DNA from: Trypethelium eluteriae
Taxonomy: Eukaryota
Assembly: GCA_051942245.1 (NCBI GenBank)
Contig: JAVECL010000021.1
Span: 62,001-97,613 of the forward strand
Direction: 5' to 3'
DNA length: 35,613 nucleotides
The translations under genes and the position numbers were made by a program. The notes beneath the pieces are model-generated. The model ran no database searches. It worked only from the letters and a program-made list of their open reading frames with translations, and was not told the origin of the DNA. Shown in pieces: positions 23,177-35,479 of this stretch (the stretch's first letter is position 1; every line of letters begins with the position of its first letter).

Positions 23177-24006
23177 CCGACTCGAACAAATGCGAGCCAG
23201 TTTGTGCTGAAAAGATGAAAGGAGGCATAACGAGGTCCTCGGAACCGAACCAAGCCTCGGGGATTCGAACTGCTTAGCCAGACCGCATCAGGGGAAAAGC
23301 AGATTGGCTAGCATGGTCCCCAGAGGTGTTCACGGAAGTTCAAGAAAGTTCGAAAAGGATGACAATACTAGCGGATTGTTCTGTACGGGCAGGAGCATGA
23401 GGAGCATGAGCATGAGGAGGATGCCCCTCAACCGGTGGGGCAGCACGTGGGCTGGAAGATGAGGACCTTGACGGGCAGTGCTACACTTGCCCGTTCCGGT
23501 TAAGTCTGAACTCCCGTGACTCCCCATAGAACGTCATCGCAGCTCCCTTATCGTGTCTCTGTGCTTACCAGGTATGGCGAAACGGGCATATCACAATGGA
23601 GACAAGAACTCCACCACGCCGAAACCTGCGCAGATGAAGCTTGCAGACGACATGCATGATCATATTGTGCAATACCATCCGCGAATCTGATGCCATACCA
23701 ACGTTTGCGGCTTAAAAGATGGGTTCGAGAGGTAGGCTTGCGTGCGAGAAGAAAGCACGCTCGACTCATATGCAGACCTTGAAGGTCCTCAAAAATCCTA
23801 GTCTCTGCTCACAAAGGTACTTGTGTAGGTAGGTAATTGGTCATCTTGGCCATGTGTAGGCCTGTCGAAAGGTCTCCACTTTGCTGTCAAATCTCCTTGT
23901 GTGTGATAGAGTCGTAATGCCATCGAACACAGAGGAATGCCGTGAGGTGCAGCGAACGCTTCCAGTGCTTCAGGCTGGTAGCCTGAAGCACTGACTATCT
24001 TCACTT

Positions 24007-26805: not shown

Positions 26806-29322
26806 TCAAGCTACGGTCTCATGACCTTTCACTGCCTCTTCTACCGTTGGTTTAGTGGCTGGGTCTTTAATGTCTATCTCACCACTGTCCTTCTCTCCGT
26901 GAGGGCCTTCAACCGCGCTGTCCTGCCGAGTGTCCTTGTCTGCTGCGGTATCAGATGACTTCACTAAGTTATGCTCCTCCAGTATCTTTTCTACGTATAT
27001 CTTCAGCTGTTGAAGCTTGTTGACCATTCCACTGTCTGAACGCTCTTCCCCTTTCGTCGCCTCTTCTTTCTTAGCTGCCTCCACTTTCTTGTCCTCTTCC
27101 TTCCCTTCTCTCCTCACTTTCTCCAACCACAACGGATCCAATGCCTCGGTATTCAAGTATGGGCTTTTGTCCATATCCAGCGTCCACTCCATCGTCCATC
27201 CCATGCCAAGCGCGGCCCAGGGATTCTTGTATATGTACGAGATGTGGAAGTCTTCCCAACGCGGCCTGGACATGATCTGATTGAAATGGAGTGTAGCGCC
27301 AGGCCAGACGGCATTGACACGGCCGGTGTCGTTGTTCTTATACCACGAACGGCAGGAGTCTTTCCAGACGGTATGTGTAATCCATTCCTGTGTTCAAAGT
27401 CAATCAAGGCCCAGATTAAGTGGCAACAATTGAGTGGTTAAGGTTGAGGAATGGCAGGAAGATGGGTGCATGAGAAAATCAGAAATCCAACGAACCTGAG
27501 TATGGTCATTGAACTGATCCGTAATGTCCTGCCTCGGAGCCCACGCCTTTACTCCATCCCTTTGCATCTTCCTCAGCCACTCCAGCACATATCCGCTCAC
27601 CGCCACCAAACCTCCCATCACGCTTCCGTTCTCCACAGGAAACGTTGGTCCCAGCATCTGAACCATATTCGGAAATCCTGGCACACACACACTAAGATAA
27701 CTCTCCGGCACATCTTTCCACTTCTCCGCCAAATCCACGCCATCCCTCCCGACTATTGGGAATCGAGGCCGATAGGTCGTATCAAACCCGGTCGCACAAA
27801 CAATCGTATCGACCTCCCTCTCTATGCCATCCCCACCGACGATACCCTTCTCCGTCGCCTTCGCCGCCGGCGTGAAATGGACATCGACATTCTCCTTCTG
27901 CACCGCCGCCATATATGGATCGCCCGGCGTGATCCTCCGACAACCGAGCCCGAAGTTCGGGTTGAAGCCCTCGAGGAGGCGCGGGTCCTTGAGATGCTCG
28001 GCGGTGCGGGCGCGCATCTTCTCCTGCTCCTGGGCCTGCGCCCTGGTGTCGCTGTAGAAGGAGCCCCAGAAGCCATTGACGACGTCCTCGATGGCTTTGG
28101 CGGCGGCGACGAGGTCGTCGGGCGAGTGTCGGAAATGCGATTTTTCGGCGGCGCTGTAAACCCGGTCGTGGCTGCCGCCGCCGCCGCCGATGAAGTCGAT
28201 GAACCAGACGCCTGGATCGAGAGGAAATTAGAATGCGTTTGTGGGTTGGAGAGATGGCGCGGGAAGGAGGGGGAAAGAAGGCGGTTTGTGTCTGAGCTCA
28301 CCTGTACGAATGAAAACGTCCATGTGCTTGACGAAGGGTTGCATAGTAGGGACTGTCTGAATGGAAGACGCGCCGGATCCAATGACAGCAACACGGTCTT
28401 TTTTCCACTGCTCTGCTTGGTAATCTGCTGGCCAGTGGGCTGTGTGTACAAGCTTCACTTGAGTATTAGTGTCTGATCGATCAATGGCGCTGGAGTTGAA
28501 AGTAGAAACTTACTCTGCCTTTGAAGGATTCTATGCCTTCAACCTTTTTCGCTTGTTAGAAGTAGCACCCAAAGGTTAGACTGGTACACATACCTGAGGC
28601 CATTTGAAGCTGTTTAGAAGCTATGAGGAGGTCAGTCAAGCTCCAGTATAAGACTTCAGGGACGGGAGATACCCCAGCAGCGTGCAACAAGACGTCGCAC
28701 TCGTCCTCTCTTTGTTCTCCCGTCACTGTATCTCGCAGCTTGACCTTCCATTTCCCTTTCTCTTCTTGCCAATAGCAACCCGTCACTTCAGCATTAAATG
28801 TCATATACTTCCGCAATCCAAACGTATCGACCACTCTTTTAAGGTACTCCAAGATCTCTGGCGCATGGGAAAACCACCGCGTCCAATCGGGCTAGTGAGC
28901 AGTCAATTCCCTCGAGCTCTTATTTGCAAGATACTTCAAGACGGCTTACATTCAGGGCAAATGGAAAAGCATAGGCATGACTGGGGATATCACAAGCACA
29001 CCCCGGGTATCGATTCTCAATCCATGTCCCTCCGACCTCGGCGTTCTTCTCGTAAATGACGTGCTCGATATTCTGTAACTCTTTCTGAATCTTGTAGGCG
29101 AGAAGTATTCCAGACACACCGGCACCAATAGTAAGGACGCGGATTTTGCGGTTATTCGGGTTCTGTTCATTACATGAGCATGTAATCACACCATGAAAAT
29201 TAGGAGAGAAAGGCAAAGTTTACATCATAGATTATATCTGGGATATCGTAGCCGGAAGAGCCGGGAGGGCCATAGACAAACTTCCCATCTTCCGAAAAAC
29301 CGGGAGCTTCACGAACGTGCAT
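26806..29322 (-). CDS. FAD/NADPH-dependent flavin monooxygenase, Baeyer-Villiger monooxygenase (class B) type (678 aa)
   Basis: Exons 29322-29224, 29162-28950, 28891-28673, 28620-28594, 28543-28514, 28452-28302, 28211-27496, 27387-26806. First Rossmann motif [29 protein letters not shown]; fingerprint [12 protein letters not shown] (FxGxxxHxxxWP); second Rossmann [18 protein letters not shown]; and CRSWYKN..VNAVWPG. Confidence 0.93.
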
Positions 29323-32439: not shown

Positions 32440-33927
32440 GATGAATGTTCAATCCCCGCGATCCGAGTTCAATAGGAGCTGGATGGCCGAATACCCGCAA
32501 ACCAACAAACGCGCAACAAAGACTCAACGCTCAGCGCCGAGATTGTATGTAATTTTTCCCTGATAGCTAGAGTCTAAACGCTCTAGTTGCGCAGAACTCA
32601 GGAGTCAAGTGCTTCGCCGTGAGGATCGGTGTCAGATATTAGCCAGGGAGAAGGGTTCAAAGCGAGCGGCGGCCCGGGTGCGACCGGTAGTCCCAGGGCA
32701 AGGTCGTCGAGGATAGCCGTGAAAGATGTCGAAAGCGTTCACCGACCAGGAACGAATGTCATTCAGTCAGTGAATAAGCCGGGAAAGTTGGACAGGTGAT
32801 TGTTGTGGAAGAGGTTGACGGGTGCGGCGGGAGTCAAGTTGCGGGTCGCCCCTGGAAACTCGTAAAGTCTGGGGGCGCATTGAACGGACCAATGAAGGAG
32901 CGTAGCTGAGCTCGGCCGCCTTTGCACCTGTTACCCGGCAAGACCTGGCTGGAGAGCTGGAGACCAGTCGTCATAGACCCGAATCTCATCGTTCTCATGA
33001 CATCCATAGCTCCAGACAGGTCAGCTTTCTGTAGTCTCGGCCAAGTTGTAGTGGAGCAATCGCTGAGACTTTCTCTGTGCTACGCTGGAGTCACAGTGAA
33101 GCAAAATTAATGGCTGATGATTAGGTACCCCTCTGTGCACTCCAGCGGATTGGGATCATCCTACCTCCATCTTTAGGGCCGCTACTTTTGGAATCGCGCG
33201 ACCGAGCAGCTCTTCCCAAACAAACAAGTAACTACGTACTGCTATGTCCTAGATGGTTTTCTTACGAGACACGTTTGTGCTTTGTCTATTCCTACCGGGA
33301 ACGTTGGCTGGTGCCAAGACTGCCAAACGAGATCAGAGTCGCATCAAAAACACGAGGCTTCTTAGCCTCATCGTAGACCTTCCATAAGTCTGACCAAGTT
33401 AGAAGCCAAGACTTTAGGCCTTTCAATCTCCCAGTCTGCCAACGGAGGTACTTGGAGCCGCTGACGAAAACATTATGGCTGTGTCCAGTATACCCGGCAG
33501 ACCGGCCTATGAGGCAAAAGTTCTCCGTCGTAACCCAATGGTGCAATGATTGCCACCCTCATCACGTGAAAGTTGTGGCTGGAGTGAAAGGAATCAATCC
33601 ACCAAATTACTCTGCCAACGTCAAATCTTACACTCTGATTATCCCAATATCCTCTTCCAATCTCATCCGCCTTCAGTATTTGGCAAGTAATTGTTGTGGC
33701 TGAGCTCAAGTCGAGGCAGTCTGCGAGGAAATTGTCAGCCAGCCTCTAAACCAGCCCTGTTACGAAGTCCGTTTCCATTCGACTTGCGACACAACCGAGA
33801 CCTCAACTCAACACCCCGACCTCATCTTTCACCATCAACTTCTCCACTAAATCTGCAAACCCACCTCCAGCAATCCTTTTGAACTTCGCATAACTTCTCG
33901 AATCACCACATAGACAGAACAATCGCG

Positions 33928-34744
33928 ATGGCTGACCGTGAGCAACCCTACGATCCCTACATTCCTTCCGGTCAGAACGCTGGCCGAAGCCAAGGACAAG
34001 GCCAGGATGGCAACCACCGGACGGCAGCACTTCAAGCCGTAAGTCGCTCTCAACATCCAAGGATGGCTGTAGAGGACATGCCAAGTGTATATTCAACGAT
34101 CATCGATGGCCGCCGTCTCCAATGAACATCGAGCGTTGCGCCTAAACCGATAAGCTCCGTCGCCGCAGGAAAGCGCCGAAGGCGTCAACTTCATATGTCA
34201 ATCTCAAATTTCGAGGCATGCGACTGCTTTGATGTCTCAACGGCGTCCTTCAAAGCAGCGTCGTGGCCAACAACGTTAAGATAGACAGCTGGATTCACTG
34301 GCCTCAATCGCGGAGATCGGTTTACCAAATGCAATTATCGATGATCCGGCGCGTGTCCTCTACAGTGGCGTCCTTCAAGATTAAAGCACCCTGATAATTA
34401 TGCAACTGCTGACTGATATATGTTTCTCTAGGAAATCGACAGCACAGTTGGCATCATGCGCGACAACATCAATAAAGTCTCCGAGCGCGGCGCCCGCCTT
34501 GACTCCCTTCAAGACAAGACTGATAACCTCGCCGTCTCTGCCCAGGGCTTCCGCAGAGGCGCCAACCGTGTCAGAAAACAGATGTGGTGGAAAGACATGA
34601 AGATGCGCATGTGCCTCATTGTCGGTATTATCATCTTGCTCGTCGTCATCATCGTCCCGTCTGGTACGTTCAAAATGCCATGCTTGATGTGATATGGGAC
34701 GGGACTAATTTTACACTCTAGTCATCGCAACAAAGCATCACTAA
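33928..34744 (+). CDS. SNC1: Synaptobrevin / v-SNARE (Snc1/Snc2/SynA orthologue; 121 aa)
   Basis: Exons 33928-34038, 34432-34663, 34722-34744. Sequence [80 protein letters not shown], then [27 protein letters not shown]. Confidence 0.97.
34059..34375 (+). other. Candidate structured RNA element filling synaptobrevin intron 1 (intron 34039-34431)
   Basis: Nested complementary segments: 34059-65/34369-75, 34066-81/34351-66, 34098-109/34335-46, 34136-40/34330-34, 34143-51/34316-24, 34155-60/34310-15, 34213-17/34301-05, 34224-32/34250-58, plus a hairpin at 34173-85. Confidence 0.75.
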
Positions 34745-35479
34745 GTGCACATACGCGCTGTGGGGAAAGGAATGGGGACGGATAGTTTTTGGGCGATAGA
34801 AAGAAATGAGAGCAGGAGGTCTGAAGGAGCTGGATGTCTTTGCTCCTCCCCTAGTTCAATAACCCGTCCTGTGTACACAAAGCATCGCGAATGCGTGGTG
34901 GCTGCTACCTTTACGCCGGGCGAAAATGGAGCATATGGGTGTTTTCCATCTCATTCACCACCGATTCAAGGAGTGTAGCAGTAAGCTTTTGTATCTATCA
35001 TATACCTCTAATGATTGCATTCATGGTACCGGGGTGAGCTTGCTTGTCCAAAGAGGAGTAAAGTCGTCTAAGTTTGCGCTCTATTCCTTTACTTCCAGTG
35101 TCCTCTACAGCATCCTCTTACAATCGAAATTTACCTTCCTTACCAATATCGAAGATATTCAAGGCTTCTTACACGTCCATGAGCAAGCCCAGACTGCGCT
35201 TCCAAATACATGGTAGCCCTGAAATTCCAAGGCTTCGTTCTCGGTGAGTCTGCTTCTGCTCCCAGATAAAAGCCGCCCTAGGCAATGTCAAGACACTGCT
35301 CACAACACACGTGCGCCTGCGAGAGCCTCTTGCGCTGAGCTGACTACATTGAGGGTCAGCAAACTCAGAGTGCCCATCAGCTACTCCTTCAGGTCCGATG
35401 CTCGCATGGAAGGCTGTCCATGACCATATGCTCTCCACTTTTATCCAGTATATCCCGCCTCATTATGCTAGGAATCATT

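Follow-up and report, generated by a model that had tools for sequence, protein, structure and literature searches.

Intron 1 of the synaptobrevin gene contains a long hairpin that is real and that looks like a lineage-specific inverted DNA duplication spliced out with the intron, rather than a conserved RNA switch. The gene lies in the window, as we call the whole stretch of 35,613 nt that was analyzed, and the hairpin corresponds to an imperfect palindrome inside intron 1 (Table 1). We would place the origin of the palindrome at the level of DNA because its arms are collinear and because a direct repeat surrounds the right arm.

Table 1. Features of the synaptobrevin locus and of the palindrome in intron 1 (window coordinates)
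Feature	Position	Strand	Basis or remark
Start codon (ATG)	33928	+	Synaptobrevin gene
Exon 1 of the Snc1/SynA-type synaptobrevin gene, 37 codons, ending ..RTAALQA	33928..34038	+	Read from sequence
Intron 1, 393 nt, GTAAGT..TAG, phase 0	34039..34431	+	Sequence and spliced contigs
Imperfect palindrome (foldback block), 317 nt	34059..34375	+	Self-complementarity and folding against shuffles
Left outer arm, AAGGATG + GCTGTAGAGGACATGC	34059..34081	+	Pair probabilities 0.82-1.0
Perfect 10-bp helix, left half	34098..34107	+	Partner 34337-34346; pair probabilities 0.61-0.66
Perfect 9-bp helix, left half	34143..34151	+	Partner 34316-34324; pair probabilities 0.88-0.99
Apical hairpin, CTGCTTTGA / 17-nt loop / TCAAAGCAG, palindrome axis	34224..34258	+	Pair probabilities 0.48-0.99
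First copy of direct repeat GGCGTCCTTCAA, in the middle of the palindrome	34242..34253	+	Perfect 12-nt repeat
Perfect 9-bp helix, right half	34316..34324	+	Partner 34143-34151
Perfect 10-bp helix, right half	34337..34346	+	Partner 34098-34107
Right outer arm, GCGTGTCCTCTACAGT, 2-nt bulge, CGTCCTT	34351..34375	+	Partner of left outer arm
Second copy of direct repeat GGCGTCCTTCAA, spanning the right boundary	34367..34378	+	With copy 1, brackets the right arm
Candidate branch points: GCTGAC, branch A 34412; ACTGAT, overlapping it, branch A 34416	34408..34417	+	Read from sequence
Exon 2, SNARE motif and transmembrane helix	34432..34663	+	Pfam PF00957, E 3.2e-30
Intron 2, 58 nt	34664-34721	+	Sequence and X2 contig
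Stop codon of the synaptobrevin gene	34742-34744	+	
Outer-arm motif, third copy, matching 34060-34078 at 18/19 positions, ~355 nt past the stop codon	35099..35116	-	Marginal significance

Anatomy of the palindrome

A preliminary description of this locus had proposed that intron 1 pairs end to end in nested order. This pairing proved real and non-random, and every helix listed there was found again in its place. Comparison of the whole intron with shuffled sequences gave an MFE of -121.8 and a z score of -2.86 on the + strand, with 1 of 100 shuffles as good; the intron folds well on the - strand also (-125.3). For the core (34059-34375), the z score was -4.52, and none of 300 shuffles was as stable. 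Scored for self-complementarity (self versus reverse complement), the core reached 64 against 26.8 +/- 6.7 for shuffles (z 5.59; 0/200), which is the highest score among 353 windows of 400 nt taken across the window.

The two arms are identical in 105 of 129 aligned columns and stay collinear over their full length, with many indels, some of them large. The outer stem comprises 7 + 16 bp (23 bp in all) with a 2-nt bulge. Exceptions among the listed helices are GAGGC/GCCUC, with a pair probability of 0.00, and the side hairpin, with one of 0.19. Nor are the splice signals strictly unpaired, as had been proposed: both the MFE and the centroid structures show weak pairing of the branch-point region with positions +4 to +7/+9 of the donor. 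The only open reading frames of at least 50 aa that touch 34059-34375 are the exon-1 read-through and two antisense frames overlapping exon 1.

Folded on its sense strand, the core has 11 G-U pairs with the z score given above, compared with 4 G-U pairs and a z score of -2.83 on the antisense strand. This sense-strand advantage could reflect selection on the RNA, and it counts against the explanation that we favor below.

Intron 1 in related loci

Intron 1 occupies the same position, between ..LQA and (E/Q)ID.., in 57/57 evaluable genomic loci, and the end of exon 1 is conserved in 57 related loci. Its length, singled out earlier as unusual, is ordinary for this position: the orthologous introns (n=47) range from 57 to 557 nt, their median length being 275 nt, and a length of 393 nt is reached or exceeded by 13 of the 47. 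Orthologous introns carry GCTGAC, GCTAAC, or ACTGAC 9-24 nt from the acceptor.

The interior of the intron (34053-34402) has no sequence similarity in any of 80 related loci; the nearest of these relatives share only 82-88% identity in the DNA of exon 2. The covariation analysis suggested in the preliminary description yielded no count, since no orthologous intron 1 among the 80 loci could be aligned. A word-size-7 blastn search of the core against 287 kb of related loci gave chance-level matches only (best E 3.2). Smith-Waterman comparison of the intron interior with 40 orthologous introns gave a best z score of 3.4 (locus L057; -0.1 for L005), scores that we read as pointing to no homology of the interior. 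In an all-against-all blastn of 48 introns, only near-identical pairs aligned, together with L037 and L060, weakly.

Excess structure is uncommon among these introns: over 37 of them the mean fold z score is -0.59, with values of -2 or below in only 4/37, and long introns such as those of L004 (440 nt, z -0.25), L019 (407 nt, z -0.97), and L043 (414 nt, z -0.71) show none. End-to-end folding is seen in the introns of L005 and L015, built there from unrelated sequence. Among 34 orthologous introns of at least 200 nt, 11 had donor-proximal/branch-point-proximal complementarity at p<=0.05 against shuffles, and this terminal complementarity suggests that structure may be favored generally in synaptobrevin intron 1, a point against the explanation favored below. 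Significance was reached in a reversed-partner control as well (Wilcoxon test, p 0.012 and 0.030; n=31), and a mismatched-partner control gave p 0.11. The orthologues displayed no strand preference (-35.7 versus -35.8, p 0.82), and a positional rank test on the last 50-nt window, which may lie too near the branch point, was null (KS p 0.78).

Origin of the palindrome

A 12-nt direct repeat connects the center of the palindrome with its right boundary. Direct repeats of at least 12 nt arose in 6 of 2000 shuffles, and the one at 34242/34367 grows to 16 nt across a 5-nt gap. On these grounds we tentatively favor the reading that 34059-34375 is a lineage-specific DNA palindrome created by local inverted duplication through template switching, whose arms have decayed and which is passively spliced. 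The palindrome would have arisen within a habitually long, fast-evolving intron, most likely in a single local inverted duplication by a replication template switch. The polymerase would have turned around at a hairpin of 8-9 bp that was already present (CTGCTTTGA..TCAAAGCA), synthesized a reverse copy of the left arm, and then returned at the CGTCCTT/CATCCTT microhomology. As a result, the direct repeat would enclose the newly made right arm, after which the arms would decay through substitutions and indels. We infer this route from the layout of the repeats; no pre-duplication allele was seen. RIP was considered as the source of the divergence between the arms and rejected, the differences comprising 9 transitions and 15 transversions.

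Template switching is described as a single-event route to hairpin stems, in which the stem arises when nearby sequence is copied as its reverse complement (PMC8794818), and the same would apply here. The present layout fits that account: the inverted copy is bracketed by a direct repeat, the inner junction falls at a short hairpin that would have existed before, and the outer one lies at a microhomology. The cases treated in that source are mainly short stems in RNA genes, whereas here the copy would be ~110-170 nt long and lies within an intron.

The outer-arm motif has three matches in the window where 0.69 are expected. The third of them, at 35099-35116, is marginal (E 0.14 for the window) and has no inverted partner within 34600-35400. 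A single local event leaves this copy unexplained, a point that counts against the favored explanation. A profile built from the four local copies of the motif (nhmmer) recovered these four in the window and no others, a result that is circular by construction, and the arm motif CTGTAGAGGACA was present in 0/80 related loci.

An unlikely but serious alternative is that the block is what remains of a DNA transposon of foldback or MITE type that inserted into the intron and is now decayed, single-copy or far diverged from its family, and passively spliced. It is 317 nt long, without coding capacity, and ends in imperfect terminal inverted repeats of ~23 nt (arm cores 34067-34081 / 34351-34365, 15 nt, 93% complementary); as such it resembles the MITEs of Epichloe festucae, whose 13 degenerate families are described as non-coding elements below 500 bp with terminal inverted repeats (PMC3227409), and the solo motif copy at 35099-35116 would be a further trace of its termini. 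The best candidate for a target-site duplication, the flanks CAACATCC / CAAGATTA, could be a decayed 8-bp duplication, but it matches at only 5/8 positions (chance ~0.03 before allowing for the several boundaries tried) and is unconvincing; no TA, TTA, or TWA duplication was found at the palindrome boundaries. Multiple dispersed copies, named in the preliminary description as the sign of a MITE or introner insertion, did not appear: a second copy is absent from the 35.6-kb window and from the 80 related loci, and only 1 of the 140,795 contigs of X1, the probable source run, matched at >=80% identity, a threshold that could miss relatives since fungal MITE families, as reported, can average just 62-83% pairwise identity (PMC3227409). 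That single X1 contig (2612 nt) runs unbroken through the element. The direct repeat, by which terminal sequence recurs at the element center, is unexpected for a transposon and sets the block further apart from the Epichloe festucae elements, as described. That the block is a degenerate introner-like element, or a relative of internally symmetrical (stw)introns, is hardly credible. Introner-like elements of Dothideomycetes are described as longer than regular introns, with stable predicted secondary structures and quick degeneration (PMC3609843), and the symmetrical (stw)introns of Hypoxylaceae comprise sister introns with terminal inverted repeats but without target-site duplication (PMC8469720). 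The latter resemble intron 1 in having inverted repeats able to form double-stranded RNA, splice-reaction nucleotides outside the pairing, and no Rfam match. The shared, ancient position of intron 1 largely refutes both possibilities, as introner-like elements occur as many near-identical copies in unrelated genes at recently gained positions and the sequence here is single-copy in the searches just described. Furthermore, the symmetry leaves out the first 20 nt and the last 56 nt of the intron, whereas the Hypoxylaceae repeats, as characterized in PMC8469720, belong to a proliferating family, are 45-55 nt long, reach the intron termini, and carry WTTCTAGAAA, a motif with 0 matches in the whole window at up to 1 mismatch. 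Intron 1 also begins GTAAGT, not GGT.

Possible roles of the hairpin RNA

The preliminary description had read the G-U pairs as a sign of selection on the RNA, but the helices in question contain only 5 wobbles, and their limits were set at the points where pairing ends. In the complete alignment of the arms, the sense strand has 4 G-U against 5 A-C oppositions, in addition to the 15 transversions; the argument from G-U pairs is unsupported. The same applies to the proposal that folding gives the intron an effective length typical for this genome: the donor to branch-point path in the MFE structure was as short in 26% of 200 shuffles. Among orthologues, this path ranked at or below 0.1 against shuffles in 1/34 introns (34 of 39 run). 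With 0 Rfam matches at E<=1 in 33800-35300, and no gathering-score match in 20 orthologous loci, a ligand- or temperature-responsive switch, or any other regulated switch or intron-hosted ncRNA, has no support.

Passive bridging by the 23-bp outer stem is plausible on the basis of its predicted position. [quoted passage not shown] The outer stem begins 20 nt after the donor (34039-34058) and ends 32 nt before GCTGAC, or 36 nt before the branch A, and its total linker of 52-56 nt thus falls within that definition, a point that weighs against the favored explanation. The transcribed palindrome would form a long imperfect hairpin with ~52-56 nt from donor to branch point through the structure, which is zipper-stem geometry. 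As in the S. cerevisiae examples of that source, the stem would join the part of a long intron near the donor to the part near the branch point. Unlike them, it is the outermost part of a collinear 317-nt palindrome and is known from predicted pairing; moreover, other long introns among the orthologues lack such a stem, and the comparison does not show it to be needed. The bridge first proposed therefore stands as a geometrically plausible use of a known mechanism, without its claim of selection on the RNA. A literature search returned no description of a structured synaptobrevin intron, and SNC1 is unmentioned in the main text of PMC12350175.

That selection maintains the hairpin as a zipper-type splicing bridge, whatever its origin and possibly under modulation by temperature or protein, strikes us as unlikely. 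The position of the stem, its high pair probabilities, and the lead of the sense strand in z score and G-U count would agree with it, as would the enrichment of terminal complementarity in orthologous introns and the end-to-end folds of L005 and L015; Saccharomyces zipper stems are reported to be lineage-specific and without sequence conservation (PMC12350175), and absence from orthologues is hence not decisive. However, L004, L019, and L043 do without excess structure, the path from donor to branch point is not shortened relative to shuffles, and the comparison among orthologues gave no strand preference, no significance with mismatched partners, and a null positional rank; in addition, one stem suffices for a bridge, which does not call for a 317-nt collinear palindrome. 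More speculative, and improbable in our estimate, is a combined history: intron 1 of the exocytic v-SNARE gene would be kept long in most Pezizomycotina and would repeatedly gain end-to-end pairing (in the window, L005, L015, and others) through selection on structure and not on sequence, and a template-switch palindrome would have been co-opted here as a zipper-type element, perhaps with Snc1 output tuned by 35099-35116, acting as a rival pairing partner or as a target of small RNAs. On a very improbable reading, small RNAs (of microRNA-like or hairpin-siRNA type) or another stable intron RNA are processed from the hairpin, with 35099-35116 as a possible target or competitor. The 23-bp stem with its 2-nt bulge would suit such a precursor, and since the left arm matches the antisense strand of 35099-35116 at 18/19 positions, a product of the left arm could base-pair with the mRNA-sense strand at this site; but that match is marginal, the RNA-type contigs end at 34959, short of it, the inner stems have just 9-10 bp with large bulges, and the hairpin lacks both an Rfam match and conservation. 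Under the template-switch reading, the hairpin is probably tolerated or mildly helpful rather than regulatory.

If this ordinary reading holds, the intron provides a worked example of one DNA-level event giving an intron a designed-looking RNA fold, and a warning not to read selection into nested helices and G-U pairs. Should the hairpin matter, the principle of yeast zipper stems would hold in filamentous fungi too, and in an essential secretion gene, and the persistently long, unalignable intron 1 would be a natural system for the study of structure selected without sequence.

Splicing of the synaptobrevin transcript

Intron 1 is removed by ordinary splicing. Exon 1 is joined to exon 2 in contigs of X2 and X3/X4 (X2-X5 are sequencing runs guessed to be of RNA type), with exactly 393 nt skipped, and intron 2 is skipped also in the X2 contig. 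The intron 1 interior occurs in no X2-X4 contig, which is uninformative on retention, as contigs drop rare forms. The product predicted earlier for a retained intron 1, 65 aa long with a stop at 34123-34125, is correct. The exon 1/exon 2 joint in the X2 and X3/X4 contigs was reported one base leftward, a shift that would fit a synonymous GCC>GCG difference in the organisms from which these contigs derive.

Splicing and folding of intron 1

The gene is a synaptobrevin of the Snc1-type v-SNARE kind, exon 2 matching the Pfam family Synaptobrevin (PF00957) with an E value of 3.2e-30. Contigs of three RNA-type runs (X2, X3 and X4) were aligned to positions 33700-35300 for splicing; X4 has records and a size identical to those of X3, and the pair was counted as one data set. 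The spliced form, lacking exactly 393 nt between exons 1 and 2, was present in X2 and in X3/X4, and the X2 contigs also skip intron 2. In all three runs the first joint was placed with a leftward shift of one base (34037 to 34431, 'CG..TA') and no mismatch. We infer a synonymous GCC>GCG change at the last base of exon 1 in those organisms, which are otherwise at least 99% identical, with the intron still GT..AG. The related locus L002, which is spliced and metatranscript-like, likewise has an exon 1 ending in CG. Retention of intron 1 would yield a 65-aa product, as the preliminary description had said and an ORF check bore out; since a premature stop is expected from any retained intron, this is not a special feature.

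Features of the synaptobrevin gene and of the palindrome in its first intron
Feature	Position	Strand	Remarks
Start codon ATG	33928	+	sequence reading
Exon 1	33928-34038	+	37 codons, ends ..RTAALQA
Intron 1	34039-34431	+	393 nt, GTAAGT..TAG, phase 0
Palindrome core	34059-34375		317 nt, imperfect
Outer arms of the core	34059-34081 / 34351-34375
Exon 2	34432-34663	+	matches PF00957
Intron 2	34664-34721	+	58 nt
Stop codon	34742-34744	+	sequence reading

The nested fold of intron 1 is real. All helices that the preliminary description had listed were found where it placed them. The folding energy of the whole intron is -121.8 kcal/mol; 100 dinucleotide shuffles averaged -108.0 +/- 4.8, and one of them did as well (z -2.86). 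For the core alone, z was -4.52 and none of 300 shuffles was as stable. Pair probabilities supported the outer 7+16-bp stem (0.82-1.0), the 10-bp helix (0.61-0.66), the 9-bp helix (0.88-0.99) and the apical helix (0.48-0.99), but not GAGGC/GCCUC (0.00) or the side hairpin (0.19). The symmetry was also evident at the DNA level, by local alignment of the intron with its own reverse complement: the score of 64 compares with 26.8 +/- 6.7 in shuffles, none of 200 reaching 64, and ranks first among 353 overlapping 400-nt windows over the 35.6 kb (mean 26.0, sd 6.7, next 50).

Two inferences about splicing fared less well. The splice signals are not strictly unpaired: in the minimum free energy (MFE) and centroid structures, weak pairing joins donor positions +4 to +7/+9 to the branch-point region. 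The effective length of about 76 nt carries little weight because the donor-branch point distance is also short in MFE structures of shuffles: the graph distance in the window was 6 and the shuffle median 16, and 26% of 200 shuffles were equally short. It was at or under the 10th percentile in only 1 of 34 orthologues (MFE).

Intron 1 of the synaptobrevin gene is usually long

An exon 2 scan of metagenome contigs gave 80 related loci. The same codon boundary (..RTA(A/Q)LQA | E/QID..) carries an intron with GT donor and AG acceptor in 57 of 57 evaluable genomic loci; 18 loci have no interruption there, being either spliced transcripts or copies without introns, and five (L007, L026, L071, L076 and L080) lay outside the evaluation. 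The position is therefore old, as had been proposed; the intron of S. cerevisiae SNC1 presumably lies at the equivalent position. The 57 loci provide 47 distinct introns of 57-557 nt (L045:924-1480 and L054:2489-3000 are examples), with a median of 275 nt; 39 are of at least 150 nt and 13 of at least 393 nt. A long intron 1 is thus the rule for the synaptobrevin gene and no peculiarity of the window, contrary to the initial impression of unusual length.

No blastn similarity to 34053-34402 was found in the 80 loci, and the core gave only chance-level matches to all 287 kb of these loci at word size 7. Smith-Waterman comparison of the intron interior with 40 orthologous introns gave a best z of 3.4, within what 40 trials allow. 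Orthologous introns from different lineages are also not alignable with one another. In agreement with the earlier remark that no RNA family is described for the structure, Rfam had no match in the gene region, nor in 20 orthologous loci. In the nearest relatives exon 2 DNA is 82-88% identical and the protein nearly identical; neutral sequence is not expected to be alignable at this distance, so the missing homologue does not refute selection on structure. Intron 1 seems to stay long even though its sequence is not conserved, lineages being not mutually alignable and Rfam families absent.

Origin of the palindrome

We tentatively favour a DNA palindrome that is specific to this lineage and decaying, within an intron that is habitually long. 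Local template-switch duplication is its most likely source; its transcript would fold into a hairpin and then be spliced out normally. The arms are collinear over their full length, with 105 of 129 aligned columns identical and indels of up to ~17 nt, and a 317-nt palindrome exceeds the one stem that a bridge requires. G-U pairs had been taken as a sign of RNA selection, and the listed helices indeed hold five G-U pairs and zero A-C. This count is biased because helix limits are set by where pairing stops; the full arm alignment has, on the sense strand, 4 G-U against 5 A-C mismatches, plus 15 transversions. The core folds better as sense (z -4.52, 11 G-U) than as antisense (z -2.83, 4 G-U), a weak hint of RNA selection; transcription-associated mutation asymmetry is another possible cause. 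In absolute energy, the antisense strand of the complete intron is no less stable than the sense strand (-125.3 vs -121.8).

The most telling sign of a DNA-level origin is that 12 nt, GGCGTCCTTCAA, recur perfectly in direct orientation, at 34242-34253 in the palindrome centre and at 34367-34378 over the right boundary; the repeat resumes as AGCA past a 5-nt gap, giving 16 nt. Among 2000 shuffles, only 6 contained a direct repeat of at least 12 nt. The right arm is bracketed by the two copies. On the inner side the repeat adjoins a 9-bp hairpin (CTGCTTTGA/TCAAAGCAG); on the outer side it includes CGTCCTT, which is complementary to AAGGATG at the left terminus. This is the layout expected under fold-back copying, and it suggests a template-switch route. 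A polymerase would have turned back where a short hairpin already existed, made a reverse copy of the left arm and switched back at the 7-nt microhomology, copying the stretch between a second time. Template switching is described as a source of hairpin stems in the excerpted text of PMC8794818.

A transposon relic is a less probable origin of the lineage-specific palindrome, suggested by small size, inverted termini, absence of coding capacity, 8-bp flanks matching at 5 of 8 positions and a third arm-motif copy at 35099-35116 (-). This copy is 18/19 identical to 34060-34078, ~355 nt past the stop codon; the window holds three arm-motif matches against 0.69 expected, the third being marginal (blastn E 0.14). 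It has no inverted partner nearby, and the RNA-type contigs end at 34959. Against such a relic, the block has no further copy in the window or the related loci. In X1, the probable source of the window and not independent of it, 1 of 140,795 contigs (36.4 Mb) matches the stretch at at least 80% likeness, and that contig (2612 nt) is unbroken through the element. Mean pairwise identity in fungal MITE families can be 62-83%, according to the excerpt of PMC3227409, so copies could fall below this threshold. Copy number in the window, in the 80 loci and, at 80% likeness or more, in the X1 contigs speaks against a MITE, a decayed relic being still conceivable. An introner-like element, as the portion of PMC3609843 consulted describes it, was ruled out by the intron position in all 57 evaluable loci and by the absence of copies from the window and, at that threshold, from the X1 contigs; an ILE relic is very improbable. 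Separately, the outer arm holds two RAGGAC units ~14 nt apart, and a degenerate fourth arm-motif copy lies at the palindrome centre (34233-34264; nhmmer E 3e-4, circular model).

Next in probability, and possible, is a selected splicing element of the zipper type, the intron-bridging stem of yeast. A zipper stem is defined by a length of 6 bp or more and by linkers of 42-85 nt, and such stems are lineage-specific with sequence not conserved (PMC12350175, in part). With 23 bp and linkers of 52-56 nt the outer stem falls within the positional definition given there, and it may plausibly act like one. The symmetrical (stw)introns of Hypoxylaceae, as characterized in the excerpt of PMC8469720, were ruled out: in the window the symmetry does not extend to the intron termini, and there is no WTTCTAGAAA. 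A small-RNA precursor is improbable, and the ligand or temperature switch and intron-hosted ncRNA of the preliminary description found no supporting evidence.

Pairing in orthologous introns

Among 37 orthologous introns of at least 150 nt (two near-duplicates dropped), fold z averaged -0.59 (median -0.69) and was -2 or lower in four (L005, L010, L045 and L049); introns of 407-440 nt in L004, L019 and L043 had z near 0. Of 39 palindrome scores only three stood out, those of L064 (0/200), L051 (2/200) and L061 (5/200). These results, like the donor-branch point distances given above, speak against a bridge being required in long introns. In L064, from another lineage, intron positions 91-160 (L064:750-819) form an independent local palindrome/hairpin of ~70 nt (z 6.19, 0/200 shuffles).

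Pointing the other way, terminal duplexes of the 70 nt that follow the donor with the 70 nt that precede the branch point were better than shuffles (p<=0.05) in 11 of the 34 orthologous introns with a length of at least 200 nt. In 31 non-redundant introns they averaged -35.7 kcal/mol against -31.1 and -31.8 with reversed partners (Wilcoxon p 0.012, 0.030). L005 (L005:1525-1813) and L015 (L015:2748-3000) fold end to end with sequence unrelated to the window's. The enrichment is weakened by the mismatched-partner control (p 0.11), by the lack of strand preference across orthologues (-35.7 vs -35.8, p 0.82) and by a null positional rank test (KS p 0.78). About one-third of long orthologous introns thus have some near-terminal complementarity, which is compatible both with repeated selection for pairing and with repeated gain of inverted repeats by a long unconstrained intron. 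Near-terminal complementarity was also seen in L049, L059, L055 and L027.

Other inverted repeats in the window

The second-highest palindrome score (50), at 27892-28202, arises from a 20-nt, 80% inverted repeat (27892-27911/28044-28063) plus (GCC)n-like GC-rich arms (28085-28111/28176-28202), and probably reflects coding low-complexity sequence. Another inverted repeat, at 23963-23993, matches perfectly over 14 bp on either side of a 3-nt spacer (CAGTGCTTCAGGCT nnn AGCCTGAAGCACTG).
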